56,548 bases of DNA, from positions 1 through 56,548 of the IMG/VR virus record IMGVR_UViG_3300042154_001807; one strand, 5' to 3'. The number at the start of each line of letters is the position of its first letter. Position 1 is the stretch's first letter. This DNA is from a virus (Duplodnaviria > Caudoviricetes). This document shows positions 9,478 through 56,548 of the stretch, piece after piece. The notes under the pieces are model-generated. The model had not been told where the DNA came from. It made no database searches and saw nothing but the letters and a program-made list of their open reading frames with translations. Both the position numbers and the translations under genes were made by a program.

Positions 9478-9734
9478 ACAAAGCTCTCGATGTTTTTCTG
9501 GTGAGATAACTTTTCATGCTCTGGCATAGCAAGAACCTCTAACCATATCCCTCTGGTCATCTTTAACTTTGCAGTGATGTCTGGAGGAGTGCCCTCGTCG
9601 AGAATCTCTTCTTCGATCTTAGACAAACGCTCACGAAGCATTGGGAAAAACCATTCAATGACACCAGCGCATTTGCTGAACTCATTGATCAGCGAGATGA
9701 TTGCGTTAGATTCTTTCGGATTAAAGTTAGACAT
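9441..9734 (-). CDS. Small protein following the portal
   Basis: Probable start MSNFNP overlaps the portal stop. Confidence 0.55.
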   Translation of the reverse strand: MSNFNPKESNAIISLINEFSKCAGVIEWFFPMLRERLSKIEEEILDEGTPPDITAKLKMTRGIWLEVLAMPEHEKLSHQKNIESFVQSAKPQSTERW

Positions 9735-27456: not shown

Positions 27457-28149
27457 TTAAGCCATTGCTCGATTGTAGCGCTTGAAAGCACCAGTCTTAC
27501 TGGCACCCTCGTCCTTGCGATTCCCAAATGTAGACTGGGTCATAGAATTTCCTCCAGCCTTGATCATTGGAGGAGAAATTGAAGAAACCATAGGCTCAGC
27601 TGGAGAGAACCCGTCAGTCGATGGAGCAGACGAATCAGCTTCCTCAATAGATCCTGTCCCAATTCCGCCGATCTTAGGGGTTCTTGCGGGACTAGCGACC
27701 GAAGTTCCAGTTGCTGGCTCAGCGCCAGACGAAGAAACACCAGTCGAAACAGGGGTAGGTGGTCCTTGCATGATCGATCCTTTCTGCCCAGCCTGCGCTG
27801 GGGTCGAAGAAACACCAGTCGAAACAGGGGTAGGTGGTCCTTGCATGATCGATCCTTTCTGCCCAGCCTGCGCTGGGGTCGGGGGGGTCACAGAAGTTGT
27901 TGCCTGAGCAGCTTTCTCGCTCGGTGACAACATGTCGGTCGTCGCACGCTTCGCATACTCGTCCTTCCACTCGGGTGCAGCATTCCTCCAAACCTCGTTC
28001 TGAAACTTCATCGCAGCTTGGTCTCGGGTCATCCCCTTCATTGGTCCTTTCAAATATTTGAACACACCTTTGTCGTCATTATTCAGTCCTCCGCCTTGGG
28101 AAATCCATGTAGAATAAGCATGTGCATAACCATTCGCTGTCGCAGTCAT
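27457..28149 (-). CDS. Putative internal virion protein with a 25-aa tandem duplication
   Basis: 230 aa; TPAQAGQKGSIMQGPPTPVSTGVSS occurs twice. Confidence 0.55.
   Translation of the reverse strand: MTATANGYAHAYSTWISQGGGLNNDDKGVFKYLKGPMKGMTRDQAAMKFQNEVWRNAAPEWKDEYAKRATTDMLSPSEKAAQATTSVTPPTPAQAGQKGSIMQGPPTPVSTGVSSTPAQAGQKGSIMQGPPTPVSTGVSSSGAEPATGTSVASPARTPKIGGIGTGSIEEADSSAPSTDGFSPAEPMVSSISPPMIKAGGNSMTQSTFGNRKDEGASKTGAFKRYNRAMA
27730..27879. repeat. Perfect 75-bp tandem duplication
   Basis: 27730..27804 = 27805..27879. Confidence 0.9.
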
Positions 28150-28415: not shown

Positions 28416-28493
28416 TGGTTGTAGGGGTGGAATTTGAATCCACATACTCTACGTCATGAGCGTAGCGTCTTACCAGTCGACATTCACCCTGCT
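28416..28493 (-). tRNA. tRNA with CAT anticodon (Met/fMet/Ile2), atypical acceptor stem
   Basis: Anticodon arm CTACG-CTCATGA-CGTAG, T arm GTGGA-TTCAAAT-TCCAC, encoded ACCA; mismatches at pairs 1:72 and 3:70. Confidence 0.8.
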
Positions 28494-36725: not shown

Positions 36726-37001
36726 ATGAGTGAAAAAGAAATAACAACAGACAACGGTGGGTCGGCGTTTCCAACAACTGGCTTCGATAGCCCAAATCAT
36801 GGGTGGCAACACGGGCAAGAAGGTATGACACTACGCGACTACTTCGCGGCGGCGGCTTTGACTGGAGAGGTTGGCGGCGAAGATTTTGGTGGTGAGCTAG
36901 CACAACTAAGAAGCCATGAAAACGCAAGGTTGATGGCGAGGAGAGCATATATGCTAGCGGACGCAATGCTGGCAGCAAGAAAGGAGGGCAACCAGTCATG
37001 A
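36726..37001 (+). CDS. Conserved phage protein with GG.AFP / GMTLRDYFAA / AY..ADAML motifs
   Basis: Widespread small phage family recognised by its motifs; start MSEKEI. Confidence 0.75.
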   Translation: MSEKEITTDNGGSAFPTTGFDSPNHGWQHGQEGMTLRDYFAAAALTGEVGGEDFGGELAQLRSHENARLMARRAYMLADAMLAARKEGNQS

Positions 37002-37630
37002 GAAACGTAAACTGTCCGAAGACAAAAATCTACGTTCGCTGCGATGCGTTTGGTGGGTCTCCTGAAGAGTTTGAACCAGCGTGGTTGGTGTCCGTAAGAG
37101 CGATGCGTAACCGACCACTATGCTTCCAAGCATGGATTGAAAAGTATGCAGCGTGCTACGACAAGATTCCACCTCAGTGTATCTACTGGTATAAGCCTGA
37201 CGCAGACCACAAAGCGCTACCACTTCACAAGATACAGATGTGGGAGTGCCTCTCTGGATCTATCGAAATTTGGCGAAAGGATCAACTCAACGATGTTCCG
37301 ATGCTAGTGAACCTCGGAAAGGGTATGGATCCAATCGGAGGTCATTATTGGTTTACTATCGACTTCCTGCCCGAAGGACAGGCTCAAGGATTGTTTGACG
37401 TGGGCGACTCCGAGCTGCTCGAAGAACACAAAGAAGGTAATGTGATCAAACTGGACAACGGGCAGATTGCAATCTACCCAAACAACCGACTCAAATGGCT
37501 TCCAGTATCTCTGACAGGAAAAGAAGCACCGAGCGCAATTCCTCCGTGGGATGTGGCAACCAACGCCCAATGGGACGAGTGGTGGGCAGACTCAGACGAA
37601 ATCTTGGGGGACGCAAAATGGGCATATTAA
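36998..37630 (+). CDS. Conserved phage hypothetical protein
   Basis: 'FTID...SE...EHK..N.IKLDNGQ.A.YPNNR..W' pattern recalled from aquatic phages. Confidence 0.7.
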   Translation: MRNVNCPKTKIYVRCDAFGGSPEEFEPAWLVSVRAMRNRPLCFQAWIEKYAACYDKIPPQCIYWYKPDADHKALPLHKIQMWECLSGSIEIWRKDQLNDVPMLVNLGKGMDPIGGHYWFTIDFLPEGQAQGLFDVGDSELLEEHKEGNVIKLDNGQIAIYPNNRLKWLPVSLTGKEAPSAIPPWDVATNAQWDEWWADSDEILGDAKWAY

Positions 37631-38388
37631 AAATTATGAACGCAACATACGGACTAGAATTATTCGAACTCGCACTCCGCAAAGAGACCGAGTCAATGAC
37701 CGAGGCAGAGAGAGCGGTATACGCTCAGCTGTCCGAACACCCAGTCACTCAGAAGCAGATAGCTGAGAGTGAGCGCTGGATAGGCACACACCCTTGGCAT
37801 GATGGATACGAGTCGGACACGACTACCAGAGCTGTTAGGCAGATAGTTCAGGATCTCAGGACCAAGCACAAGGTGCCTGTGCTGTCAGACCGTCGTGGCT
37901 ACTTTTTCAGTAACGACGAAGAGCAGCGTAAGGCATTTCTCGAGAGGCATGTCCGCAGTGCGACAGCGTCGATGAAGACATCGATCGAGACATACAATTC
38001 GATGAAGCACATCGTCGGAGAGCATGCATTTTTTGAATCGATGTTAGAACTCATAAACCGTGAAGACAACAGCCAAGCACAGGAAAGCCCAGCGTTGCCT
38101 GATGCGGGATGTTCGGACACACCGAGAACAGATGCTAAAATGTTTCCCGCATGGGCATGGGACACGCACACAATGGAATACGTGCCTCACGGCATCGGAT
38201 TTCCTGCCGAGGATGCCCGTAAATTAGAGCGCGAACTAGCAGCAGTCACCGAGCAGCGGGACACGCTGGCAGAGGCACTCCGAAAACTAGCTGATTGCGA
38301 TTGGGTAATTACACTGCCAGATCGGATGGACGCAGTAAGAACTATCGCCAACGAAGCCCTCCAATCCATAACCCCGAACGAACTATGA
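37618..38388 (+). CDS. Winged-HTH-like protein fused through an attC-like site to a TPRTD/ARKLERE module
   Basis: 'TTRAVRQIVQDLR...VLSDRRGYFF'; the segment NSQAQESPALPDAGCS is encoded by 38064..38117. Confidence 0.6.
   Translation: MGILKIMNATYGLELFELALRKETESMTEAERAVYAQLSEHPVTQKQIAESERWIGTHPWHDGYESDTTTRAVRQIVQDLRTKHKVPVLSDRRGYFFSNDEEQRKAFLERHVRSATASMKTSIETYNSMKHIVGEHAFFESMLELINREDNSQAQESPALPDAGCSDTPRTDAKMFPAWAWDTHTMEYVPHGIGFPAEDARKLERELAAVTEQRDTLAEALRKLADCDWVITLPDRMDAVRTIANEALQSITPNEL
38064..38117 (-). mobile_element. attC-like site A (54 bp, inner stem slightly decayed)
   Basis: Minus strand: TCCGAAC-ATCCC-GCATCAGG-caacgctgggcttt-CCTGTGC-TTGGCT-GTTGTCT. Confidence 0.75.
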
Positions 38389-38795
38389 ACACAGACACAC
38401 CGAAAATAATACAATTACTAATGTCACCGAATGACTCCGTATGGCAAGGCGTGTTGCTTGGTCTTGGAGATGATGGAGTTACATATCATTGCCAAGGGGA
38501 TACATGGCAACCTTACATACCTCCGTTGAATCCACAAGATAAAGCAGCCGAGCTTGCCTCCTTCACCGAGCAGCGGGACGAAGCGCGAATTGAATTAGAG
38601 AAATACACAACTGACAGCGAAGACGATGCGCTTTATAACGTGCGAAGATTGCGTAAAGAACTAACCGCCGTCACCGAGCAGCGGGACGAAGCGCGTCGCC
38701 TTGCCGAGAAATACCGCCACTTATCATGCGACAGCCTAGAGGAAGCCGATGAAACGCTGCTGCCTTGGGAAATAACAACCCCGAACGAACTATGA
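38385..38795 (+). CDS. Hypothetical protein with TEQRD repeats
   Basis: Probable start MNTDTPK, ATGA-coupled. Confidence 0.6.
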   Translation: MNTDTPKIIQLLMSPNDSVWQGVLLGLGDDGVTYHCQGDTWQPYIPPLNPQDKAAELASFTEQRDEARIELEKYTTDSEDDALYNVRRLRKELTAVTEQRDEARRLAEKYRHLSCDSLEEADETLLPWEITTPNEL

Positions 38796-38841
38796 ACACA
38801 CCAACCGACTCCGAGGCGTTGCCTCTCACGACTTGTTCGTC
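38780..38841 (-). mobile_element. Partial/hybrid attC-like site C
   Basis: R''-L'' arm GACGAAC-AAGTC-GTGAGAGG-CAACGCC is nearly identical to site G, but the matching L' is missing. Confidence 0.55.
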
Positions 38842-38974
38842 TTGTTTGAATTGGGAGCCACGCCAGAACAGCGGCATTGGTGACGGATACTGCCAGATCT
38901 TCGATAAATTCACCGATCCTGACCACGGCAAACGCTGCACCGCATTTGAGCCGAACGCACAAGCAAAGCCATGA
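38792..38974 (+). CDS. Small Cys-rich cassette protein
   Basis: MNTPTDSEALPLTTCSSC..W...GYC...C..F; starts and ends inside attC-like sites. Confidence 0.6.
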   Translation: MNTPTDSEALPLTTCSSCLNWEPRQNSGIGDGYCQIFDKFTDPDHGKRCTAFEPNAQAKP

Positions 38975-39080
38975 GCCATTGTGAAAACATCGACGGAAAG
39001 TGCGGAGCGTCGTGGTGTGACTGCGACTATCAGCGGCGTAAAAAGTCAGTTGGATCATTGGCTTCTGCGCCTTGTTCGCG
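38950..39080 (-). mobile_element. attC-like site D (131 bp)
   Basis: Minus strand: CGCGAAC-AAGGC-GCA(G)AAGC-CA(A)TGA...TCATG-GCTTTGC-TTGTGC-GTTCGGC. Confidence 0.8.
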
Positions 39081-39333
39081 GTTGCGGATACCTCGCCACC
39101 TGCTCGAACTGCGCATTCGCAACGCCATAGCCGACAAGGAAATGGTAACGGCGATGGCAAACCGTGACCTGCAATGCGGGGACGGGTGGCGGTGCGACTA
39201 TGCCGAGTGGCATCGTGAAGTCTCAAAGGAGATCGAGGAACTATTCATTCTTTCCGCGAACAGCCAAGCACAGGCACGCCCAGCGTTGCCTGATGCGGAA
39301 TGTTCGGAACAACCAACAAACGAAACAAAATGA
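38971..39333 (+). CDS. Hypothetical cassette protein
   Basis: 120 aa; starts inside site D and reads through site F. Confidence 0.6.
   Translation: MSHCENIDGKCGASWCDCDYQRRKKSVGSLASAPCSRLRIPRHLLELRIRNAIADKEMVTAMANRDLQCGDGWRCDYAEWHREVSKEIEELFILSANSQAQARPALPDAECSEQPTNETK
39255..39308 (-). mobile_element. attC-like site F (54 bp)
   Basis: Minus strand: TCCGAAC-ATTCC-GCA(T)CAGG-CA(A)CGC-TGG-GCGTG-CCTGTGC-TTGGCT-GTTCGCG. Confidence 0.85.
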
Positions 39334-39689
39334 ACGACACACCGACACCGAGGACGGATGCTGAACACGCTCAATTTCCGATGGGAGGATTTACGTTAGA
39401 CTTTGCCAGAAAACTTGAACGCGAGCTTGCCGCCGCACGGGAGGAATTAGCCGAACTAAAGGCGGAATACGGAACGTGGTGGGCGCAGAAACGCATCGCA
39501 ATTGATGAGCTAAAGGAAGTCACCGAGCAGCGAGACAGGCTGGCTGAGGAGTTGAAAAATATCAAATGTGCTTTTTGCGGGGAAACGCAACAAACAGAAA
39601 ATGAAAAAGCATATTGCCAAGAGTTTAGCAATACACTAGGTGAGTTACCAACTATGGCTATGTGGCTACTAACTAAAAGGAAGCCATGA
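39330..39689 (+). CDS. TPRTD/ARKLERE-type coiled-coil protein
   Basis: Probable start MNDTPTPRTD, ATGA-coupled. Confidence 0.6.
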   Translation: MNDTPTPRTDAEHAQFPMGGFTLDFARKLERELAAAREELAELKAEYGTWWAQKRIAIDELKEVTEQRDRLAEELKNIKCAFCGETQQTENEKAYCQEFSNTLGELPTMAMWLLTKRKP

Positions 39690-39840
39690 ACCTAGAACTC
39701 TGGCAAATCGTCGGCAATCAAGGAGGTGATCGATGAGCGACCAAAGCATAAAACTGTTAGAAAAGATCCTCGACAAGGCAAAATCTCTAACGAAATAGAA
39801 CTTTCTTTCGTTGTAGAATATAGGATTTTGAAAATACTTG

Positions 39841-39890: not shown

Positions 39891-39915
39891 CCAACAACAC
39901 TAATCAAAACACATT

Positions 39916-40164
39916 ATGAAAACTACAATCATCCACGTCGATCACCGCAAAGTTGAAGTCGAAATCAGAAACGCTCCAAACGGTCGCAAGCTTGTAATCG
40001 CTATTCGCGATGCGGGTGCATCGGAAATGTGGGATCAAAAACCTAATCCGATTGGCGCATATATACGCCAGCAGTGGAATAAAACTTACATCTACAAGCG
40101 TTGCGCGGGATGGGTATCCCTAAGCGCATCGCAAATTGGATTTCTTGACGAAATTACAGTCTAA
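39916..40164 (+). CDS. Small early protein
   Basis: 82 aa after P2. Confidence 0.65.
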   Translation: MKTTIIHVDHRKVEVEIRNAPNGRKLVIAIRDAGASEMWDQKPNPIGAYIRQQWNKTYIYKRCAGWVSLSASQIGFLDEITV

Positions 40165-40216
40165 CTAATTCAAAAACAGGGGCGCGGCTGAATACGCGCA
40201 ACCGAAACACAAAATT

Positions 40217-40462
40217 ATGACAATCACAAACGCAATTAAAAAAGTTACCAAGGCAGGTTTCAAAGTCACACAAAATGGGAAACGCTATTCAGCAAAAAAA
40301 GATGGCATAAATTATCTTGTTGAGTTTTCACAAAACGGCAGTGAAGACATAATCACCTGCATCGGAGTGCGTCACAAAAACGATAATAGCGATAGTCAAT
40401 GCGACTATTGCGCCACGATTTTTACTGATAACCTATCGCAAGCAATCAGACTTGCTCACTAA
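40217..40462 (+). CDS. Small early protein
   Basis: 81-aa ORF. Confidence 0.65.
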   Translation: MTITNAIKKVTKAGFKVTQNGKRYSAKKDGINYLVEFSQNGSEDIITCIGVRHKNDNSDSQCDYCATIFTDNLSQAIRLAH

Positions 40463-40470
40463 CTAAAAAT

Positions 40471-41843: not shown

Positions 41844-42239
41844 ATGAACACACCTACGAATCCAACAGCAGCACAAATTGCACAATACACAGCAACCGTC
41901 ACCCAAGTGGGCAAAAAATGGGTGCATACTTTGATTGACGAAAATGGACAAGTGATTGCAAAGCGTAGCACAGACAACTGCACACCATACCGTGCAGCGT
42001 GTGTTACAGTTGTCACTCTTAATTCTCGCATTCACTCCCTCAAAAGAGAGATTGTAAAATCTCGTTCAAAGTCATTCATTGAGTCCTGCAAACACGACAT
42101 TCAAGAAGCACAGGCAGATATTGCAGCAGGTGTTGATGGCAACCAGTATTTTGGTTTTATTGTTTCATGGACAAGAGGTCTTTCTGGGTCCGCCAGTTAT
42201 GGATCAATCATTGCCAGACTGGTGCCATGCAAAGCATAA
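41844..42239 (+). CDS. Hypothetical early protein
   Basis: Probable start MNTPTNPT downstream of P3. Confidence 0.6.
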   Translation: MNTPTNPTAAQIAQYTATVTQVGKKWVHTLIDENGQVIAKRSTDNCTPYRAACVTVVTLNSRIHSLKREIVKSRSKSFIESCKHDIQEAQADIAAGVDGNQYFGFIVSWTRGLSGSASYGSIIARLVPCKA

Positions 42240-43560: not shown

Positions 43561-44676
43561 ATGAACAAAACATTACCACCACAAGAGGTCGAGGTGCTAC
43601 CCACGCTCGAGATGTCGGAAGTCCCACAGGAGTTCCAAGTGAAGATTCGCGCCAGTTTCGGAGACCTGATGCACCAAGCTGATGTGCTTGTTACCAAGGC
43701 TCGAGAAATCGCAGCAATGGGAGAGTCTACCGATCAGGAGAAGCAGGCACGGGAGACCCGTCTGGCGCTCGTCAAGGTGCGGACTAGTGCCGAGAAAACG
43801 CATAAGGACATGAAGCAAGACATCCTTGTGCAAGGTCGTGCGATCGACGGGGCGAAGAACATCGTGATCGCTGCTACCCAGCCGTCCGAGAAGGACATGA
43901 AAGCGATCGAGGATCGTGCCGAGCTACGTGCCCAAGAAGAGCGCGACCGTCTGCACGCTGATCGATACGCTGAGCTGAACCAGTTCACGACCGCATACAA
44001 CACACTCAGCCTCGGTCGCCTGACCGCTGAGGAGTATGCAGCGATGCTTGACAACAGCAAGCTGGCACACGAAGCCAGAATTGCCCGTGAAGAGCGCGAG
44101 AAGGCAGAGCGCGAAGCCGCAGCCAAGGCTGAGGAGGAAGAGCGCCAGCGCATTGCTGCCGAGCGTGTAGAGGCTGAGAAGAAAGCAGCAGCAGAGCGTG
44201 CTGAGCTTGAGGCTAAGGCAAAGCGTGAGGAGGCTGCTCGCAAAGAAGCTGAAGCAGTGATCGCAAAGCAGCAAGCAGAGGCTGAAACCGCTCGCAAAGC
44301 TGCTGCTGCGGCACTAGCCAAGCAGCAGGCAGAGGCTGAGGCAAAGCTCGCAGCAGAGCGTAAGTCTGCGGCAGCGGCTCTTGAGGCTGCGGCAGCGGCG
44401 ATTGAGAAAGCAAAAGCTGAGGCAGCACGGCTTGCAAAGATCGAATCCGATCGATTGGCTGCTGCTCGCGCCGATTCCGAGGCTAAGGAACAGGCTGAGA
44501 AAAAAGCAGCCATTGCTCCTGACAAAGTCAAAATCGCTGAATACGCGAAAGAGATTTTAGGGGTCAGGTTGCCTACTGGCAGCACCGACGATGGGAAAGC
44601 AGCTTGCGCTAAAATCAGCAAGGTCATCGAAACAGCACTCGCTGAAATCCGAACCATTTACACAACACTAAAATGA
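43561..44676 (+). CDS. Long coiled-coil protein of the recombination module
   Basis: Ala/Glu/Lys/Arg-rich; 'AIDGAKN', 'APDKVKI'. Confidence 0.7.
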   Translation: MNKTLPPQEVEVLPTLEMSEVPQEFQVKIRASFGDLMHQADVLVTKAREIAAMGESTDQEKQARETRLALVKVRTSAEKTHKDMKQDILVQGRAIDGAKNIVIAATQPSEKDMKAIEDRAELRAQEERDRLHADRYAELNQFTTAYNTLSLGRLTAEEYAAMLDNSKLAHEARIAREEREKAEREAAAKAEEEERQRIAAERVEAEKKAAAERAELEAKAKREEAARKEAEAVIAKQQAEAETARKAAAAALAKQQAEAEAKLAAERKSAAAALEAAAAAIEKAKAEAARLAKIESDRLAAARADSEAKEQAEKKAAIAPDKVKIAEYAKEILGVRLPTGSTDDGKAACAKISKVIETALAEIRTIYTTLK

Positions 44677-45554
44677 TACAAGAAGCACAAAGAAAAGGAG
44701 CCAAGGGAGTTTTCGGATTCGCTGGTCAATCGGGCACTGGGAAAACCTTTAGCGCACTCATGTTCGCGTATGGTCTCGCTGGCTGCGTCGGCAAGCGCAT
44801 GGGATTTCTTGACACCGAGAACCGTCGAGGAAGTCTCTACGCTGACATCCTTCCAGATGGCGACCGATTCATGGCAATGGACATGACCGCTCCGTTCCAT
44901 CCTCGCAAATATGTCGAGGCTATTGCGGAGTTCGAAAAAGCTGGAATCGACACCCTTGTCATCGACTCTATCTCTCACGAATGGGAGGGTCAAGGAGGCT
45001 GCTCCGACATCGCTCTCTACGGGGACTACACCGACGCTCAGTTCTCTGACGGCACATGGTGCGCGAAAGAAGCCAAGCGTGCCCAGTGGCAGGTTGCTAA
45101 GCGCGAGAACCAGAAGTTCGTGAACGCACTGCTACAGTCGAAGATGAACATCGTCGTCTGCCTCCGAGCCAAGGAGAAGTCCAAGGTCGAGCAAGACGGT
45201 GGTGTCAGCTCATTGGGTATCCAGCCGATCTGCGAGAAGAATTTCTCGTTCGAGGCTACCACTCTCTTGCTCATGCAGGACGAGGGTTCGTCTCAGAAGG
45301 TGCTGCGCTGCCCTTCGGCGCTCAGACCCTACCTCGGACGTGCCGATGACTACATCACGGTGCAGGACGGTCTTGCTGTGCGCGAGTGGCTACAGGGAGG
45401 CACTCCTATGACAGCACTCGACAGACTGCGTGCGCAGCTCCTCACCAGCGCTGGGGAAGCCAGAGAGGCACTGTGGAAGTCTCTGACCAAGGATCAGAAG
45501 AAAACTCTAACCGACGACGGCACAGTCGCTCGTTTGAAAGGTGAGACGGTATAA
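44673..45554 (+). CDS. AAA_24 / Sak4-like ATPase (ssDNA annealing/recombination)
   Basis: Walker A GQSGTGKT, 'DTE', Walker B 'LVIDSISHEWEG.GG'. Confidence 0.8.
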   Translation: MIQEAQRKGAKGVFGFAGQSGTGKTFSALMFAYGLAGCVGKRMGFLDTENRRGSLYADILPDGDRFMAMDMTAPFHPRKYVEAIAEFEKAGIDTLVIDSISHEWEGQGGCSDIALYGDYTDAQFSDGTWCAKEAKRAQWQVAKRENQKFVNALLQSKMNIVVCLRAKEKSKVEQDGGVSSLGIQPICEKNFSFEATTLLLMQDEGSSQKVLRCPSALRPYLGRADDYITVQDGLAVREWLQGGTPMTALDRLRAQLLTSAGEAREALWKSLTKDQKKTLTDDGTVARLKGETV

Positions 45555-45557
45555 TTT

Positions 45558-45785
45558 ATGACTGACGAAGAAATTGAATTCTTTCAGCGTGAGAGCGCTG
45601 AAAGAAAGCGGATCAAAAAAATGGTTGATGACCTAAACGAAAGCGAGAAAGAGCGCAAGTCGTGGAGCAAATCACAAGAGCATAAAGCACCGTCAATAAC
45701 ACGATCCTATGCTGGCGGCAAAACATCGAAGGTCAAAGGGACTGGAAACTTTGACAGAGAGCAAATCAGATACGAAGGAAAATAA
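45558..45785 (+). CDS. Hypothetical protein
   Basis: 75-aa ORF. Confidence 0.55.
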   Translation: MTDEEIEFFQRESAERKRIKKMVDDLNESEKERKSWSKSQEHKAPSITRSYAGGKTSKVKGTGNFDREQIRYEGK

Positions 45786-45789
45786 TAAC

Positions 45790-46701
45790 ATGCAACCACA
45801 AATCATATACAACTACCCGAGAAAAAATTACTTCGCCCCTCATACTGGCGACCACAAGACACTGCGTGTCAGTAAGTCAATGCTTACCGACTTCGTGCCT
45901 AACCCAGCTGCGTGGCTGCTCATGCCTGTGCGCGAATACACAAAGGCGATGAAGTTCGGAAACCTCGTCGACTGCTTAGCACTGACCCCGACCGAGTTCG
46001 AGAACGAATACACAATCCTCCCATCGCACTACCCGTGCAAGCCGACCAAAATAGATCCTCGGGTAGAGAAACCGTGGAACGCTAATTCAAACTACTGCAA
46101 AGCTTTCGAAGCAGGTGTCGAGCTGGACGGCAAGCAAGCTGTGAAGCAAAGCGACTACCAGCAGGCACTCCAAGCGCTGACCATGCTCATGGCATTCAAG
46201 CCATACTCTGAGATGATGGAAGAGGCATCCACACAGGTTGCTATGTTCGGAGAGATTGTCGAAGAGGGATCTATGACCTTGGCTAAGGCGATGATTGACA
46301 TCGTGCCTAACAAAGGGAAGTGGAAGAGCTGCCTCGTTGACATGAAGACTACCGCTGAGATGTCGGAGCATCACTTTGCCAAGACAGTCGCGAAGTTTGG
46401 ATACCACCGTCAGGCTGCTCTGTATCTCGACCTGTGGAACGCATTGTCTGGTGAGAACCGAGACACGTTCTACATCGTATGGGTTCACAGTAAGGCACCT
46501 TACGAAGTGGCTATGAGACCGATCAGCGCCTCAGCAATTGCCGAGGGTCGTCGCTGGTATCGCAGCGCTCTTCGTCTCTGGAACGAATGCGTTACAACGG
46601 GAGTGTTCCCATCACCATGGGATGATATTGAGACCCCGATAGATTTGCCAGCGTTTGTCGAGTTGACATCGTTGGATGACGAAGAAGAAGAAGAAAACTA
46701 A
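45790..46701 (+). CDS. RecE/exonuclease VIII-like PD-(D/E)XK nuclease (DUF3799)
   Basis: 'SKSML', 'AMKFG', 'KAMID', 'VDMKTT', 'YHRQAALY', 'KAPYEV'. Confidence 0.85.
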   Translation: MQPQIIYNYPRKNYFAPHTGDHKTLRVSKSMLTDFVPNPAAWLLMPVREYTKAMKFGNLVDCLALTPTEFENEYTILPSHYPCKPTKIDPRVEKPWNANSNYCKAFEAGVELDGKQAVKQSDYQQALQALTMLMAFKPYSEMMEEASTQVAMFGEIVEEGSMTLAKAMIDIVPNKGKWKSCLVDMKTTAEMSEHHFAKTVAKFGYHRQAALYLDLWNALSGENRDTFYIVWVHSKAPYEVAMRPISASAIAEGRRWYRSALRLWNECVTTGVFPSPWDDIETPIDLPAFVELTSLDDEEEEEN

Positions 46702-46726
46702 TACCAATAATTAACTAAATAGAAAA

Positions 46727-47173
46727 ATGAGTAAAATATCACTAAACGATAAGTTAGCAGACCAAGAGGGTGGAGATTATATTCTCGTCCCTGTAGGCTA
46801 CCACGCATTCACAGTTGAAAGCGTAGGAGACGTAGAACTGTCATCCAACGGAAATGAGTTTCTAACCGTTGAGCTGACGTGCGGAGGAACCAAGGTGAAG
46901 GACAAAATTTTCTTAGGTGAGAAATCACTGTGGAGACTTGCCCGATTCTTGAAATCTTTGAAGGGAGGAGAGAGTCTTGGAGACATCGAGTTCGTGCCTG
47001 AAAAGTGCAGGTGGATTGTCGGCAAATCTGGGCAGCTTTTGATCGAGCATGAGAGTCCGACCGAAGGCAAGTATGCAGGCAAGAAATTTGCTCGCGTGAA
47101 GACATACGAGTGGGGGAAAGTGGTCGCTGATCTTGATGAGGATCCAGCAGATGACGACGACGTGCCGTTCTGA
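46727..47173 (+). CDS. DUF669-like ssDNA-binding protein
   Basis: 'PVGYH.F.V', acidic C-terminus ending DDDDVPF; follows the Sak4 and RecE-like genes. Confidence 0.75.
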   Translation: MSKISLNDKLADQEGGDYILVPVGYHAFTVESVGDVELSSNGNEFLTVELTCGGTKVKDKIFLGEKSLWRLARFLKSLKGGESLGDIEFVPEKCRWIVGKSGQLLIEHESPTEGKYAGKKFARVKTYEWGKVVADLDEDPADDDDVPF

Positions 47174-47204
47174 TCAATAAACGCTGGCATACCGTTTGTA
47201 TGCC

Positions 47205-47286
47205 ACCACACTCGCGCTCATTGCATTGAGGGCATCCTTAAACTAGATACTGGGTGAGCGACCTGAACAGTGGGTGCGAGTGTGGT
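47205..47286 (+). ncRNA. Candidate structured RNA with a 19-bp closing stem
   Basis: ACCACACUCGCGCUCAUUG pairs fully with CAGUGGGUGCGAGUGUGGU using 3 G.U pairs; two internal hairpins. Confidence 0.55.
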
Positions 47287-47292
47287 AATAAA

Positions 47293-47365
47293 ACTATCAT
47301 AGCTCAGAGTAGAGCAGTGGGCTTATAACCCATTGGACAGTGAATTAACGACTCACTTGGTAGCT
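47293..47365 (+). tRNA. tRNA-Ile(TAT)-like gene with a non-canonical T loop
   Basis: D arm GCTC-AGAGTA-GAGC, anticodon arm GTGGG-CTTATAA-CCCAT, T stem AGTGA/TCACT without TTC; no encoded CCA. Confidence 0.6.
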
Positions 47366-47465
47366 GTAATAAAATCCACACGCCTTGCCGACGTAATCGG
47401 CTAACAATTTACAAAATTATGAACAAAGAAAAACAAGAAGATGCAATTGCGATTGCAACGGGATG

Positions 47466-47551
47466 GGAGAACGCCTCTGTGGAGGCACGCCAATAACGAC
47501 TATGAATACACCAACCAACTCCGAGGCGTTGCCTCCCACAAATTGTTCTCG
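47466..47551 (-). mobile_element. attC-like site G (86 bp)
   Basis: Minus strand: CGAGAAC-AATTT-GTG(G)GAGG-CA(A)CGCC...GGCGTG-CCTCCAC-AGAGGC-GTTCTCC. Confidence 0.85.
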
Positions 47552-47789
47552 GCGTTGCTCGCCGCAGCTATCTAGTTCCGAAACTACGGCATACCGCGCG
47601 GTGGTCGTTGATGCCGATCAAGACGTAATCTGGACGCGAGACGCTCAAAACAACGTCATCGGCTACACGATTACTAACCCAAAGCCCGTCGCGGGTATGA
47701 GGCACATTCTGGACGATGGGAGTCTCTCTGCGCTAGATGTCCAAATTCATTGCGAGAACAGCCAAGATCAATCAGCACGCAGTGACTGA
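47502..47789 (+). CDS. Hypothetical cassette protein
   Basis: Start MNTPTNSEALPPTNCS lies in the loop of site G; the stop lies inside site H. Confidence 0.6.
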   Translation: MNTPTNSEALPPTNCSRRCSPQLSSSETTAYRAVVVDADQDVIWTRDAQNNVIGYTITNPKPVAGMRHILDDGSLSALDVQIHCENSQDQSARSD

Positions 47790-47808
47790 TTGCATCGACA
47801 TGTTCGAT
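47753..47808 (-). mobile_element. attC-like site H (56 bp)
   Basis: Minus strand: ATCGAAC-ATGTC-GAT(G)CAAT-CAG(T)CAC-TGC-GTGCTG-ATTGATC-TTGGCT-GTTCTCG. Confidence 0.85.
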
Positions 47809-47818
47809 AAAAATTATT

Positions 47819-49270
47819 ATGAAACCAAGACCATACCAACAGGAAGGCATCGACCATATACGACGAGCATATGGAAAGAAAATCCGCAAAGTCTTATACG
47901 TCCTCCCGACTGGAGGAGGCAAGACCGTCACGTTCTCATGCATCGCTGCTGGTGCAGCTGTGAAAGGAACTCGGACATGGATCGTTGCGCACCGTCGCGA
48001 ACTAGTGAACCAAGCGAGTAAGACTCTAACATCTTTCGGGATTAATCACGGGATCATGGTCCCTAAGTCAAAGCAGTGGACAGAATCACCAGTGCAGGTC
48101 TGTTCTCTCCAAACCCTTGTCGGTCGCATGTCGAAGGAGCAAGCTCCAAACTTTATCGTCTACGACGAAGCCCATCACGCTACGTCTGGAAGCTATGACA
48201 AGATCATGAAGCATTTCCCCGACGCTAAAATTCTAGGGGTAACAGCGACACCGTGCCGAACTGATGGCAAAGGTCTCGGTGATGTTTTTGAAGAACTGAT
48301 CATCGGTCCTTCTACTGGAGATCTAACAAATGATGGATACCTTTCTTCGGCTAGGTATTTCTGTAGCCCACGAATTGCCGATTTGTCTGGCATAGCGAAG
48401 CGTGGCGGAGACTACGAACGAGAAGCGCTTGCCGAAGCGATGGATCAGAAGCTCATCACTGGTGACGCTATCGAGCATTACAAGCGTCACTGCGACGGTG
48501 TTCCGATGATTGTGTTCTGCGTGTCTGTAGAGCATGCCAAGCACGTCGCTTCCGAGTATATCATTGCAGGATACCGAGCCACCTACGTCGACGGTCAACT
48601 ATCGGACGAAGAGCGTGCGTATCGACTCACGGGTCTCGGTGACGGAACCTTCCAAGTCGTCACCTCCTGCGACTTAATTGGTGAAGGGTTAGACATCCCC
48701 AACGTGGTCGCAGCACAACTCCTAAGACCGACGGAGTCGACAGGTTTGCACATGCAACAGATAGGAAGACCACTCAGACCAGTCTACGCAGCAGGCATGC
48801 CTCTGGACTCGGCGGAAGACAGGCTGGCAGCGATCGCGAACGGGGTGAAACCATACTCTGTGATTCTCGACCACGTAGGCAACTGCGGGTCAGTGGTCAA
48901 TGGTCAGTGGATGACCAAGCACGGGTTCGCGACAAGCCCGAGGGAGTGGTCTCTGGACGGCAAGAAAAAGAAGCCAAAGCTCGAGCCAGACGTTCTTATC
49001 AAGTCGTGCCCAGACTGCTTCAGTGTCCATGCCCCAGCCACCTGCTGTCCGTTCTGTGGGCACGTCTACCAAGTCGTCAAGTCACGCACCGTTGAAATAT
49101 CCAAGGGTGAATTGATAGAAGTCAAGGCACAGGAAGCACTGGCAAAAAAACAGGAAGAAAAAAAAGTTTTTACTCTGAAAGATCTCACAGAACTCGGTCG
49201 TAGCAGGGGATATAAAAATCCAGAGTTCTGGGCTAGAATGAAAATCAAAGGAAGAAAAAATATACGATGA
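47819..49270 (+). CDS. SF2 DEAD/DEAH-type helicase with a C-terminal zinc ribbon
   Basis: PTGGGKT, DEAHH, TATP.R.DG, EGLD.P, QQIGR.LR, CPDC/CPFCG. Confidence 0.92.
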   Translation: MKPRPYQQEGIDHIRRAYGKKIRKVLYVLPTGGGKTVTFSCIAAGAAVKGTRTWIVAHRRELVNQASKTLTSFGINHGIMVPKSKQWTESPVQVCSLQTLVGRMSKEQAPNFIVYDEAHHATSGSYDKIMKHFPDAKILGVTATPCRTDGKGLGDVFEELIIGPSTGDLTNDGYLSSARYFCSPRIADLSGIAKRGGDYEREALAEAMDQKLITGDAIEHYKRHCDGVPMIVFCVSVEHAKHVASEYIIAGYRATYVDGQLSDEERAYRLTGLGDGTFQVVTSCDLIGEGLDIPNVVAAQLLRPTESTGLHMQQIGRPLRPVYAAGMPLDSAEDRLAAIANGVKPYSVILDHVGNCGSVVNGQWMTKHGFATSPREWSLDGKKKKPKLEPDVLIKSCPDCFSVHAPATCCPFCGHVYQVVKSRTVEISKGELIEVKAQEALAKKQEEKKVFTLKDLTELGRSRGYKNPEFWARMKIKGRKNIR

Positions 49271-49653
49271 CACCATACATATCGACACATTGCAACAAGG
49301 GTAACCTCATAATCACAGACGACGAAGTTGTCTCACTGTGGACACCTTCGCCAGCTGAGCTTCAATGCTTAATAGCTGGAGGAAGCTTGGGAGTTAAAAT
49401 ATCAAAGGCAGAACAAGAGGTGTTTACTCTGATGCCAGACGATCAATCATACTATACTCAGGCTAAGTCGCCAGAGCATGCGATGGAGCTTCTGCCAATC
49501 TCAATGAGGCATTCATCCGATCTCACTAACATAATTAAAAAAGCGTTAGTTTTTCTAGCAGAGAAATTACCAAACGAAGAAAGAACCACTCTCATTTTAA
49601 ATGAGTTCTTGGATCTAACAGCTCAACCAAACATCATAACCACACATGAATAA
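49267..49653 (+). CDS. Hypothetical protein
   Basis: 128 aa, coupled. Confidence 0.55.
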   Translation: MTPYISTHCNKGNLIITDDEVVSLWTPSPAELQCLIAGGSLGVKISKAEQEVFTLMPDDQSYYTQAKSPEHAMELLPISMRHSSDLTNIIKKALVFLAEKLPNEERTTLILNEFLDLTAQPNIITTHE

Positions 49654-50302: not shown

Positions 50303-52444
50303 ATGATACCAGAACAAGAAATTGAAAGAATCAGAGATCAATACGACATCGTGTCGGTTATAAAAAGATTCATTGAGCTAGATAAAAACAACACCGCTTG
50401 CTGCCCGTTTCACACAGAGAAGTCAGGATCGTTCAAGGTGAATGCCGAGCGCAAAACTTACAAGTGCTTTGGATGCGGTGACGGTGGAGATATTTTTGCG
50501 TTCGTCCAAAAATTAAAGATGGTGAATTTCAAGGAAGCTGCCGAAATTATCACTGGACACGTCATCGCCGACACATCTAACGGATTAAAAAATGGGCGGA
50601 TTATTCTTCTCAACGACTCTCATGCAGACAGTAACGGGACAGCTCCACCAGTGAAAAAGCCTGCTCAAAAAACAAAGACTGCTGCCACTAACAAATTCGC
50701 GGCATTGTGGGAATCAAGGGTGGACAATCTAACAGAAGAGCAGGTGGACGCAGTCGCTGCCGACAGAGGTGTCGACTCGAGAGTGTTCCACTGGTTAAAA
50801 TCTAAAAAGCTTATCGGCATCTTCAACGGTAACTACGCATTCCCAGTCTTTGACGACGGGGTCGTCGTGCGGTGCCACTACAAGGACAAGGCTAAGGGTA
50901 ATTGGTTCTATGACCCGCAGGCAGCGGAGGGAACGTCAGCGCTGGTGATCGGAGATCCGAAAGCAGCGAACACAACATTCATTCTAGAATCTCAGTGGGA
51001 TGCGTTCGCTGTCATGGCATCGCTGCGGCACTGGGAGCAAGAAAACTACTATGCCTACATTATCACGCGCGGAGCCTCTTCAAACACTGACGTGTCGGCG
51101 TTGATCGGGAAAACATCTAGGATCATCGCAATCTCTCAGAACGATCCAGAAACGAAAAAAGACAAGGAGGGAAAAACCCCCGCACAGAAATGGTTAGAGC
51201 GAGTTAAAGCATCGATACCACAGGAGTGTTCGTTCTCATACTCGCACGCTCCTGAAAAGTTCGAAGACCCGAACGACTGGATCGCGAAAGAGCAACCTAC
51301 CTTTGAGGATGTCACCAAACAGTTCGTCGAGAAAGCAACGTCTCCAGATGTCCTTCCATTCTTCCGTATTCCTGACCTAACAAATTTCCCCCTTAAGGAC
51401 GATCCAGACGCGATGATTGGAATCAAAAAACGCTACCTGTGCAGAGGTGGTTCGATGGTCATCATCGGTCCTTCTGGTGCTGGCAAATCAACCCTGATGA
51501 CTGGCATGGCAATGGCATGGGCTATGGGCAGATCATGGAACGGAATTGATTGCAGACGACCGCTGAGACAGATCATTATCCAAGCGGAGAACGACAAAGG
51601 AGACATCGCAGAGATGGCTGCTGGATCAGTGTTTGCGATCAATCGAAAAGGGAAGCTTCAGGAGGAAGAATACAAGTCGCTGGTATCTAACGTAATTTTC
51701 GTCCCTGTGTCTGGAGTGACTTCCGCAGACTTCGTCAAGGTCGTCGAGCGCCAGCTTTTATTCCACCGTGCTGATGTCGTATGGATCGACCCAGTATTAA
51801 GTTATATCGGCGGAGACATATCAAAGCAGGAAGTCAGCAGTAACTTTTTTAGAGTCCTGTTAGACCCGATGCTGAAGCGCACTGGAGCGATCGCAATCCT
51901 GATGCACCACACTGGGAAGCCAGAGAAAACAGATGGCAAACCAAAAGCAGAGCGATCGGTAAAAGAATTTGCCTACAGTGGTCTTGGAAGCTCTGACATG
52001 GTGAACTGGGTGCGGTCGGTAGCTGTCCTCATGCCGACGGCAGAGAAGGGGAAATACAAGTTTATGTTGTGCAAGCGTGAGTCGCGTGCTGGAGCTATAG
52101 ACTTCGATGGATCTCCTGACGTTGACACACTATATCTGCGGCAGGGAGGCAAGAACGAAGGTCTGTCATGGACTCTGTGCCCAGCGCCACAGGAAGAAGT
52201 CGAGCCACTTAAAAAAGGAGAGAGAGAGACCCTTAACTTTTTTGACTGCACCTTTCCCACCATGTTCGAAGAGTTGATAAATCAACTGATCAAGGTTCGC
52301 AAAATCACAGCTCCAAAGGCGAGGATGCTGCTGAAAAAAGCAATCGACTTCGATGTCATTCACTGTCCTCAGAGGAACGGGATGTGGGAGATAAAGGGAC
52401 CACCAACACCAGCATATTCAAACGATGAAAGACCAGCGTTTTAA
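50303..52444 (+). CDS. Primase-helicase (CHC2 zinc finger, Toprim-like domain, AAA_25/RepA-like helicase)
   Basis: CPFH.EKSGSF...CFGC; 'ESQWDA'; GPSGAGKST; 'VWIDP'; 'HHTGK'. Confidence 0.85.
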   Translation: MIPEQEIERIRDQYDIVSVIKRFIELDKNNTACCPFHTEKSGSFKVNAERKTYKCFGCGDGGDIFAFVQKLKMVNFKEAAEIITGHVIADTSNGLKNGRIILLNDSHADSNGTAPPVKKPAQKTKTAATNKFAALWESRVDNLTEEQVDAVAADRGVDSRVFHWLKSKKLIGIFNGNYAFPVFDDGVVVRCHYKDKAKGNWFYDPQAAEGTSALVIGDPKAANTTFILESQWDAFAVMASLRHWEQENYYAYIITRGASSNTDVSALIGKTSRIIAISQNDPETKKDKEGKTPAQKWLERVKASIPQECSFSYSHAPEKFEDPNDWIAKEQPTFEDVTKQFVEKATSPDVLPFFRIPDLTNFPLKDDPDAMIGIKKRYLCRGGSMVIIGPSGAGKSTLMTGMAMAWAMGRSWNGIDCRRPLRQIIIQAENDKGDIAEMAAGSVFAINRKGKLQEEEYKSLVSNVIFVPVSGVTSADFVKVVERQLLFHRADVVWIDPVLSYIGGDISKQEVSSNFFRVLLDPMLKRTGAIAILMHHTGKPEKTDGKPKAERSVKEFAYSGLGSSDMVNWVRSVAVLMPTAEKGKYKFMLCKRESRAGAIDFDGSPDVDTLYLRQGGKNEGLSWTLCPAPQEEVEPLKKGERETLNFFDCTFPTMFEELINQLIKVRKITAPKARMLLKKAIDFDVIHCPQRNGMWEIKGPPTPAYSNDERPAF

Positions 52445-55509: not shown

Positions 55510-56548
55510 AAAATTAAATCGTCGAATACTTCTAGTCCACCATAAAAAGCACCGTAACCAGTAGCCCCTATTGGTACATGTATTTCCGTGACTGTTACCC
55601 CACTGAAGGCAGATAATGTTCCTAAGAGTGTTGGTGCTGTATCAGCGAGGCAGTTAATGACAGTGAATCCAGTGCAGTATTCAAACGCATAATCGCCAAT
55701 GGTCGTAACTGAATCTGGAATCGTTAGAGCACCTGTAAATCCAGTGCAGTTTTCAAACGCATACTCGCCAATGGTCGTAACTCCGTTACCAATCGTTAGA
55801 TCACCTGTGAATTGATAGCAGTAATAGAATGCATAATCGCCAATGGTCGTAACTGAATCTGGAATCGTTAGATTACCTGTAAATCCAGTGCAGTTTTCAA
55901 ACGCATGAACACCAATGCTAGTAACTCCGTTACCAATCGTTAGATCACCTGTAAATCCATAGCAGTCGAAGAATGCATAATCGCCAATGGTCGTAACTGA
56001 ATCTGGAATAGTTAAATCTCCAGTGAATTCAGTGCAGTTTTCAAATGCGTTGTTACCAATATCTGTAACTAAATTTCCAATAGTCAAATCTCCATCAAAT
56101 CCGCAACCATAAAATGCTGAGGCACCAATACTTGTAACTGAGTCTGGAATAATTAGGTCGCCTGTAAATGCAAACCCATAAAATGCACTAGAGGAAATAG
56201 TGGCAACATTGGCTCCAATAGTTAAGGTTCCATTAAAGTTGCATCCATAAAATGAATCAACACCAATATACGTAACTGAGTCTGGAATGATTAAGTTACC
56301 TGTGAAATTGCAGTCATAGAATGCGTTGTCACTAATAGCTGTCACCGATGTGCCAATGGTGAGCGTTCCTGCAAAGCTAGTGCAACCGTAGAACGCCGAG
56401 TTTGCGATAGTTGTAACTGTATTAGGAATGATTAGGTCGCCTGATATGTTAGTGCAGTATGCAAACGCACCATCGCCAATGCTAGTAACCGATGTGCCGA
56501 GGTCGAGTGAAGTTAAGCCAATGCATTGCTGAAATGCGTTAATCCCAA
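55506..56548 (-). CDS. C-terminal part of the BspA/TpLRR repeat protein
   Basis: Tandem 23-24 aa repeats TG.LTI(P/G)..VT.IG..AF..C..F with a capping 'IHVP.GA.GY'. Confidence 0.9.
   Translation of the reverse strand, partial: GINAFQQCIGLTSLDLGTSVTSIGDGAFAYCTNISGDLIIPNTVTTIANSAFYGCTSFAGTLTIGTSVTAISDNAFYDCNFTGNLIIPDSVTYIGVDSFYGCNFNGTLTIGANVATISSSAFYGFAFTGDLIIPDSVTSIGASAFYGCGFDGDLTIGNLVTDIGNNAFENCTEFTGDLTIPDSVTTIGDYAFFDCYGFTGDLTIGNGVTSIGVHAFENCTGFTGNLTIPDSVTTIGDYAFYYCYQFTGDLTIGNGVTTIGEYAFENCTGFTGALTIPDSVTTIGDYAFEYCTGFTVINCLADTAPTLLGTLSAFSGVTVTEIHVPIGATGYGAFYGGLEVFDDLIL

Follow-up and report, generated by a model that had tools for sequence, protein, structure and literature searches.

Comparison with close relatives supports the conclusion that two hairpin-forming elements, site G (47466-47551, + strand) and site H (47753-47808, + strand), delimit a unit that appears to be exchanged between phage genomes, and by their sequence the two are members of a single family of junction elements that recurs across many contigs of uncultured phages. 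All positions refer to the window (the whole stretch of DNA analyzed), an IMG/VR virus record of 56,548 bases with an estimated completeness of 95%. We lean toward reading G and H as folded-hairpin recombination sites of an integron-like cassette system in uncultured freshwater phages. The initial annotation had called them attC sites around one cassette inserted in a gene, and its observation is partly confirmed, being largely right and more general than was proposed: the anatomy is attC-like (AAC/GTT boxes, a spacer, a stem with an extra base, and a variable loop), but a classical integron is not what we found (no recombinase, and boxes that mostly depart from the consensus).

The slot bounded by the two sites lies on the + strand in the early and replication region. 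Upstream of it are an AAA_24/Sak4-like gene (44673-45554), a PD-(D/E)XK exonuclease (45709-46701, + strand), an SSB-like protein (46727-47173, + strand), and, as part of the upstream backbone, a tRNA-like gene (47293-47365, + strand; Rfam RF00005, 43.2 bits; anticodon loop CUUAUAA, UAU), at which ARAGORN, unlike Rfam, reported no tRNA. Downstream are an SF2 helicase (47819-49270, + strand; Pfam ResIII, Helicase_C, and DEAD; PHROG 16), which is a backbone gene contiguous with H, and a primase-helicase (50303-52444, + strand). At the nucleotide level, 46700-49300 matched none of 50,697 phage records.

We compared this slot with its relatives, i.e., four IMG/VR contigs with a 98-99% identical helicase or the same tRNA flank. 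There are no mismatches across 47060-47382, and the relatives align to the window at ~96-97% as far as 47424/47427, just past ATGAAC (47419-47424, + strand; BLAST identity stops at 47427). This motif, itself ending in AAC, contains the last bases in common and is the left junction of the exchanged segment, the first mismatch being at 47425. The next ~330 nt are wholly different, and similarity is regained at 47756, the AAC of H, so that H stays with the backbone. In the relatives, the slot holds a different ORF of 126 aa, which has only its first two codons and its last ten residues in common with the window, and contigs from two lake runs are joined in the same way, 392 other letters separating 47424 from 47806. 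The alleles covary (window, TGTTCTCG/CGAGAACA with TCG/CGA; relatives, TGTTCCCCG/CGGGGAACA with CCCG/CGGG). Because the relatives carry another gene and not an uninterrupted version of the same one, the helicase slot holds alternative genes. The alignment of the tRNA-to-helicase interval, suggested by the initial annotation as a check on its proposed insertion at a secondary GTT within a gene, thus speaks against that insertion, with both boundaries of similarity at an AAC and not at GTT.

Site H is a compact element with outer boxes CGAGAAC (47753-47759) and GTTCGAT (47802-47808), spacers AGCCAAGAT and CATCGACAT, and a stem in which CAATCAG (47769-47775) pairs with CTGATTG (47786-47792). Site G is a long-loop element with outer boxes GGAGAAC (47466-47472) and GTTCTCG (47545-47551) and inner arms GGAGGCACGCC (47481-47491) and GGCG-T-TGCCTCC (47525-47536, with a bulged T). 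Its arms form the same hairpin as those of an H-type copy at 39253, bulged T included, and by sequence it is classed as a long-loop relative of the H-type element. The two sites bracket one ORF, as annotated, of 95 aa from ATG 47502 to TGA 47789: the 33-nt loop of G contains both TAA (47494-47496), the stop of an upstream 25-aa ORF, and ATG (47502-47504), the start of the 95-aa ORF, whose own stop TGA (47787-47789) sits within the stem of H. The general plan of the family is an outer nnnnAAC/GTTnnnn pair, unpaired spacers of 7-9 nt on each side, an inner stem with a bulged T, and a variable loop, with loop lengths from three to >60 nt (about 62) and site lengths of 56-100 nt.

Within the window, AACAGCCAAG has three exact occurrences (38068, 39259, and 47757). 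When the H-type copies of the window were aligned with those of the relatives, the flanks were conserved and the stems differed in sequence yet stayed complementary. A first gapped pattern was too loose (120 matches, nine with a stem after filtering) but still pointed to a family, and a refined gapped pattern gave 18 H-type matches in 17 other IMG/VR loci. Nineteen sequences (three from the window, two from relatives, and 14 distinct ones from the pattern loci) were placed in alignment A4; repeat rows (both L128 copies, L144, and L146) and L043, which had been picked by its stem, were left out, and the stemless L147 was kept. The structure scored was an outer helix of 7 bp, a 7 x 7 spacer, and an inner helix of 6 + 3 bp with a bulged T. 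All nine inner pairs had changed on both sides, with 89.3% of the cells of that helix paired; the structure as a whole was 86.7% paired vs. 27.6-39.8% in slid controls, and its covariation score was reached by none of 500 shuffles. The outer AAC...GTT triplets pair in 18-19 of the 19 rows, but we give this pairing no weight because the search patterns partly fixed those boxes.

A covariance model of the H-type element (R1) found exactly three copies in the window (39253-39310, 63.9 bits; 47751-47810, which is H, 61.2 bits; and 38062-38119, 50.6 bits; next best, 12.4 bits) and did not detect the long-loop site G. At other loci it returned more copies, two of which are long-loop variants whose stems are new but whose bulged T is unchanged. 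The extra T of the 3' arm is seen again in stems of unrelated sequence. The copy at 38062-38119 (+ strand), inside gene A, is read through in frame (NSQAQESPALPDAGCS) into a paralogue of gene E, and it is the left breakpoint (38078) of a 1.6-kb block absent from relatives. Among 185,579 species genomes, an exact-box pattern had five matches, none with a hairpin and the best at 25.6 bits by R1, giving no convincing copy there. Among the papers listed by literature searches, which included Qi et al. (2023) and general work on integrons, none named this family of elements (the supplementary tables of Qi et al. could list similar phages).

The long-loop form has its own set of copies. A 23-mer taken from G led to 16 more IMG/VR loci and, after three exact duplicates were dropped, to 15 distinct copies, in whose 15 distinct contexts the element is an island of ~80 nt with 86-100% identity. 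All 105 pairs among these copies are alike across the element only, except for three pairs that have a downstream ORF in common. The left ends of pairwise similarity cluster at the AAC box, or at ATG where the left arm is missing; the right ends lie at +35 to +54 in 101 pairs and reach +264 in the three pairs with the common ORF, with the similarity among the three loci concerned beginning at the AAC of G and ending with the final base of GCCGAAC (-45/-40 to +264). Many contigs of the lake runs span 47469/70-47548/50 with different flanking sequence to the left and to the right. Every downstream ORF (15/15; 60-130 aa) starts in the loop with MNTPTNSEALP..(T)CS and then diverges, and 11 copies besides that of the window have an upstream ORF of 50 to >286 aa that ends in ..NASVEAR plus 1-5 residues. 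A degenerate G-type copy (38735-38841, + strand; outer box GTTCGTC at 38835-38841) spans the junction of genes B and C, and its right half (38789-38838) is 90% identical to 47499-47548. We also considered 47422-47463 as a further degenerate element, a suggestion that had a 13/16 inverted match as its sole basis and gained no support from R1.

GTTCTCG (47545-47551) and CGAGAAC (47753-47759) are exact complements, and 8/8 nt pair when the flanking T/A is included. The initial annotation had noted this complementarity correctly and had swapped the labels, the former box belonging to G and the latter to H. By itself, one 8-nt inverted repeat is not unusual in a 700-nt region that contains 19 short inverted pairs. 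By sequence comparison, however, box complementarity is a general rule of the family. For each of 16 loci (the 15 G-type copies and the allele of the relatives, with eight box variants), we searched for the reverse complement of its own GTTnnnn from the site to a point 120 nt beyond the stop codon of the following ORF. Thirteen of the 16 had it, in comparison with 6/112 for boxes of other loci and 124/4080 for all other GTTnnnn. Three of the 13 positive loci have one ORF in common; counted as a single case, they leave 11 of 14. The complementarity is sharply 7 nt long, with 0-1 extra pairs inward and 0-2 outward, and the 126-aa allele of the relatives follows the rule as well (GTTCCCC/GGGGAAC).

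The rule also holds in the other direction. The complement of the own nnnnAAC of an H-type copy was sought within 900 nt upstream and found for 16 of 25 copies vs. 182 of 6375 controls (2.9%); extra inner pairing was 0-2 nt in 14 of these 16. The upstream partners lie in a conserved context (..GTTG.. about 10 nt ..CTT-GTTnnnn), and at least five of the 16 partner sites are complete hairpins of other stem sequence with 8-11-nt exact arms. A second boxed unit of the window (39074-39310, + strand) is an example: its box GTTCGCG, within gene D at 39074-39080, is complementary to CGCGAAC (39255-39261) at the beginning of the H-type copy 39253-39310; this partner lies at -181 of the copy, in the same frame and with no stop between. 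Exceptions among G-type loci are the 38835 box and L155, which have no partner, and L157, whose partner lies far beyond the ORF; nine of the 25 H-type copies have no upstream partner, one of them with only 84 nt of upstream sequence and another being the 38062 copy with AGACAAC. The constant GTTCGAT of the compact H sites has a downstream partner in only two of 23 copies, a result that fits a cassette system only if H is a resident site.

Where similarity between contigs begins and ends indicates which part travels. Seven of the 253 pairs among 23 H-type copies have at least 90 colinear nt in common, and in six of these seven informative pairs similarity sets in 2-4 nt before the C of AAC, the seventh being at -13. 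Three pairs continue for >1.1 kb downstream at 96-97%, with unrelated DNA upstream. The G islands likewise begin at AAC, a triplet identical in all copies, so the exact crossover bond is unreadable. In units common to several contigs, the site precedes its own ORF, and a G-type site provides the ATG. From the breakpoints and the shared units, it follows that the unit would be [site + downstream ORF + nnnnAA(C)] and that the compact H belongs to the right-hand backbone. Near the crossover, G (upstream) and H (downstream) have TGTTC alone in common, and therefore too little for homologous exchange.

The 25-aa ORF (47419-47496, + strand), which is present as annotated and ends at the TAA inside the G loop, had been taken for the stub of an interrupted gene, with an N-terminus like that of a common family of phage proteins. 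We read it instead, from its composition, as a recombination leftover: its start codon and second codon belong to the backbone, 15 codons follow (47425-47469), and its tail NASVEARQ (the last 7-8 residues) is coded by the left arm of G. The noted split after ...GWEN falls exactly after the AAC of the outer box of G (47470-47472). Against Pfam and PHROGs, no match was better than E 0.09; at E<=10, tblastn matched none of 50,697 phage records; and degenerate DNA patterns for EDAIAIATGWE had no matches in IMG/VR and none in metagenome contigs. We considered L174 (PHROG 3754), the only phage-type protein among five matches to a shorter pattern, as a homologue and rejected it: it was matched by construction of the pattern, its similarity is limited to the nine residues searched for, and AIAIATGWE is internal there, not N-terminal. 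No longer homologue of the 25-aa ORF was found in these searches, the NASVEARQ tail recurs in the unrelated upstream ORFs of the 11 other contigs, and the ORF of the window is by far the shortest of the G-type upstream ORFs.

The closest structural parallel is the attC site and its integrase-less clusters (CALINs). Nivina et al. (2016, PMC5027507) describe the attC bottom strand as having AAC in the 5' arm, an extra-helical base on the other arm, an unpaired spacer, and a variable terminal structure, and the coding-strand anatomy of the G/H elements agrees with the geometry given there. As in attC/CALIN arrays, the elements are imperfect palindromes with outer AAC/GTT, an unpaired spacer, an extra-helical base, and a variable loop; the stop of the neighboring ORF lies inside the site, junctions appear to fall at AAC, and clusters occur without an integrase. 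As in attC, there are two nested inverted repeats (R''-L''...L'-R'), here an outer 7-bp and an inner 9-bp helix, and the core at the cassette boundary complements the box of its own site (13/16 and 16/25). Qi et al. (2023, PMC9892861) reported integrase-less attC clusters in virulent phages, with IntI1 able to recombine five of the six sites they tested.

There are also differences from attC. The boxes here depart from RYYYAAC/GTTRRRY, their variable bases including CGAG, GCCG, GGAG, GGGG, CGCT, and GGAT, and position 4 of GTTnnnn is C in six of eight box variants and A in two. Two further base pairs (AG/CT) lie inside AAC/GTT in these elements. attC sites usually have two or three extra-helical bases, whereas there is one here. 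The ORF lies downstream of its own site, unlike the promoterless ORF of an integron cassette, which precedes its attC, and on the strand equivalent to the attC bottom strand, and the long-loop sites carry a start codon and a 16-aa leader. A complete integron places IntI and attI next to its array; among five near-complete phages with the elements, none was found to encode an integrase.

The comparisons show the anatomy, the covarying stems, a 7-nt box rule, similarity breakpoints at AAC, and replacement of one allele by another, and from these we infer a site-specific exchange acting on folded single strands. On the coding strand, a site reads nnnnAAC, an unpaired stretch of ~7-9 nt, the first arm of the inner stem, the loop, the second arm with its extra T, another ~7-9 unpaired nt, and GTTnnnn. 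The mobile unit, [site + downstream ORF body + nnnnAA], would pass through a circular form and cross over at AAC, and the four variable bases before the next AAC would complement the GTTnnnn of the unit's own site, because a circular intermediate resolved at AAC would leave the complement of that box at the end of the unit (the signature of a classical integron cassette). The unit of the window may then span ~47472-47758 and consist of G, whose loop gives the ATG and the 16-aa leader, and the body of the 95-aa ORF. The layout would be backbone to ATGAAC (47424), then a 45-nt remnant (47425-47469) whose last bases are GGAGAA, and, after the unit itself, resident H followed by the helicase, with close relatives holding the other unit (the 126-aa ORF) at the same AAC. 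The 25-aa ORF would be a by-product assembled from the backbone start codon, the last codons of a truncated upstream unit, and the tail of G.

The enzyme may be a host IntI- or Xer-type recombinase or an unrecognized phage protein, as the phage encodes no tyrosine recombinase: in this 95%-complete record, PF00589 and TIGR02249 had no match at E<=1. A tyrosine recombinase is present in two of 34 element-bearing viral records and in none of the four that are >=90% complete. We evaluated as a recombinase candidate a 210-aa ORF (36998-37630), the sole non-element protein common to all five near-complete element-bearing phages (4/4 complete records, 7/34 overall). It was dropped for its homologues in 104 cyanophage and pelagiphage records, annotated as PurM or ferredoxin; its predicted model (pLDDT 75) had no PDB match at E<=0.001. 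No excised-circle junction was found among the contigs of four sequencing runs. Counted against a cassette system are the lack of a recombinase, the non-RYYY/RRRY boxes, the partnerless sites, and the sense-strand bias; exchange of attC-like cassettes nevertheless appears to us the best-supported mechanism, and on balance a somewhat probable one. A more specific version is that the phages have an integron-like system of their own, in which sites double as translation starts, cassette polarity is opposite, no phage integrase is present, a host tyrosine recombinase would be borrowed or an unrecognized enzyme used, and small accessory genes spread among unrelated phages in the same lakes. We propose it tentatively, as a possibility that falls a little short of probable.

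The alternative that survives best, which we nonetheless consider unlikely, is that the elements act in RNA, as processing, stability, or translational-coupling hairpins at the junctions of a polycistronic early transcript, with the 7-9-bp GTTnnnn/nnnnAAC pairing looping each cistron and the swaps produced by illegitimate or homologous recombination followed by selection. RNase III-type sites (lower stem, internal loop, and upper stem) offer an example; those of the T7 type are intercistronic, about 55-60 nt long, and often placed over the upstream stop, and to our knowledge they have no long-range box rule or breakpoint clustering. A function in RNA is favored by orientation and placement: every copy has the orientation of the ORFs beside it, 22 of 25 hairpins contain the upstream stop, and the next ORF (>=40 aa) begins 4-35 nt past the element in 16 of 25, or, for each of the 15 distinct G-type copies, within the loop itself. 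On the sense strand, G-T pairs are more numerous than A-C pairs (five vs. two), and the rarity of recombinase genes described above points the same way. However, a 7-bp helix closing 150-600 nt would be weak and ribosomes read straight through both boxes, no homology between G and H could guide the exchange, and the breakpoints fall within 2-4 nt of one position in six of seven informative pairs. Rfam returned no family and no attC-type match (the window at gathering thresholds, 47100-47900 at E<=10). The G islands, 86-100% identical in otherwise unrelated DNA, point to recent spread and not an old conserved RNA motif.

For the shuffling of modules, the closest functional analogue, by analogy, is the PeSL cassette. 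Arbiol et al. (2010, PMC2839356) and Comeau et al. (2014, PMC4122927) describe PeSLs as a sigma-70 promoter plus a terminator stem-loop, at which homology drives the shuffling of modules in T4-type phages and mini-circles are formed. PeSLs have features in common with G and H: both are short conserved stem-loops to either side of small accessory genes, in the variable parts of lytic phage genomes, and both coincide with places where close relatives differ by an insertion, a deletion, or a replacement. On this explanation, modules would be swapped at conserved junctions through short homology by the general recombination system of the phage itself. Genes for such a system (the exonuclease, the AAA_24/Sak4-like gene, and the SSB-like protein) lie just upstream, elements of the same type have 45-80 nt of near-identity in common, and a crossover within an element between its two variable boxes would also give the box rule. 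Yet most boxed units lie between unlike elements (G-like upstream and H-type downstream) with TGTTC or AAC alone in common, and inner stems are never mispaired hybrids. The elements overlap coding sequence, the 7-nt box rule connects unlike elements, and a scan of the + strand for promoters and terminators found none at G, H, or 39253 and one weak promoter-like match (9/12) beside 38062. We regard this explanation as improbable.

Still less credible, and in our view very improbable, is the explanation closest to the initial annotation, in which IntI put a classical integron cassette (the ORF plus attC H) into a secondary GTT inside a resident gene and left the N-terminus of that gene behind as the 25-aa ORF. 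The boxes are indeed complementary, and the phage attC clusters recombinable by IntI1, as Qi et al. (2023) report them, make such an event conceivable; but the slot of the relatives holds another gene and not an uninterrupted one, no relative with a full-length gene starting MNKEKQEDAIAIATGWEN was found, the exchanged segment begins at 47425, 120 nt before the GTT, and the 25-aa peptide is without a longer homologue. The probability that the sites are chance inverted repeats in a coding region is negligible: many 7-8-nt inverted repeats do occur in the 700-nt region and the folding of G and H alone is unremarkable (z of -1.3 and -1.7 for G and -2.3 and -2.2 for H, with 22 and 9 of 200 shuffles, and 5 and 6 of 200, folding at least as well), but the comparative tests (covariation, G islands, the box rule in both directions, and breakpoints) refute it.

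The usual account of phage mosaicism is selection acting on the products of rare recombination, either illegitimate or loosely homologous. In the present case the junction element is defined and readable from the sequence, with a 7-nt complementary box and breakpoints at one AAC that make up a testable rule, and at least 30 unrelated viral contigs contain swappable single-gene units that it delimits. Should an integron- or Xer-type recombinase act on the sites, lytic phages would take a direct part in the cassette economy of their hosts, and the small ORFans in the early regions of phages would form a common mobile pool. The box rule lets annotators delimit accessory-gene units in metagenomic phage genomes, and it accounts for tiny leftover ORFs such as that of 25 aa.

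The cargo of the slot, the 95-aa ORF (47502-47789, + strand), is itself composite, with its leader MNTPTNSEALPPTNCS coded by G and its tail NSQDQSARSD coded by H. It matches no Pfam family. The core between them (residues about 16-83, ..DQDVIWTRD..NNVIGYTI.NP..) is a conserved small domain: a word-index search found only the ORF itself, and a full HMMER search found six relatives, with homologues of 68-199 aa that include P0003 (E 4e-13), P0004 (E 1e-8), and P0007 (E 3e-5).

Gene A (37636-38388) looks, from comparison of its sequence with that of genes D and E (38971-39689), like a fusion of a shorter gene of the relatives with a paralogue of gene E. Its N-terminal part is the shorter gene carried by the four contigs that are near-identical to the window around the helicase slot; downstream, the reading frame continues through a compact H-type hairpin element (38062-38119) into the gene E paralogue (DTPRTDA...KLERELAA). 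Gene A lacks the ATG-bearing intergenic stretch of about 30 nt that is present at the D/E junction. Further blocks are missing or replaced in the same four relatives, at 38079-39715 (1,637 nt in the window vs. 614 nt in the relatives), 39915-40172, 40202-40464, and 41854-42229. Other block breakpoints fall at gene borders, e.g., just 5′ of the ribosome-binding site AAGGAGGTGATCGATG near 39716.

The gene immediately upstream of the first element cluster (36998-37630, plus strand) encodes a 210-aa protein, which is the only nonelement protein common to all five near-complete element-bearing phages. It has very many relatives (269 clusters), and the 120 clusters listed share 71-88% identity with it and are mostly 210 aa long. 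It is also homologous to a cyanophage/pelagiphage gene (29-36% in the 25 records listed), for which the annotations are PurM, transcriptional regulator, or ferredoxin. A β-rich fold is predicted by AF2 (pLDDT 75), and no PDB entry matched this model at E ≤ 0.001.

A minimal site was observed in the IMG/VR contig L158, ∼180 nt past its long-loop G-type site, and consists of GCCGAACAG, 6 nt, and CTGTTAGGC. There is no inner stem, and the 3′ box, GTTAGGC, does match the classical GTTRRRY core; an A-rich stretch and the inverted repeat TTGTCAAG...CTTGACA lie 3′ of the site.

The interval separating the SSB-like gene from the tRNA contains two inverted repeats (47185-47286). One is TGGCATAC/GTATGCCA (47185-47205); in the other, 19 nt at 47205-47223 are 84% complementary to 47268-47286. 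In sequencing run X13, one contig joins an H-like stretch (corresponding to 47756-47811) to 47173-47288, with 598 other letters in between. A second tRNA-like match was returned by Rfam at 28422-28490 (minus strand, 37.9 bits), where ARAGORN called no tRNA.

A giant ORF of 4,817-4,818 aa (11925-26381, minus strand) adjoins the SU10-type portal gene (9727-11922). No Pfam family was found in it, and its PHROG matches were only two, both short and of unknown function; another record, G019, carries a counterpart at 39% identity. Within a separate minus-strand ORF (27457-28149) lies a perfect 75-nt tandem duplication (27730-27879, copies 100% identical). The two ends of the record (1-273 and 56276-56548) are 97% identical across 273 nt, and both are contained in a gene of 72-nt repeats, which were noted also at 55591-56094. 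The ends may be alike because the assembly is circularly permuted, or simply because of the repeat protein.
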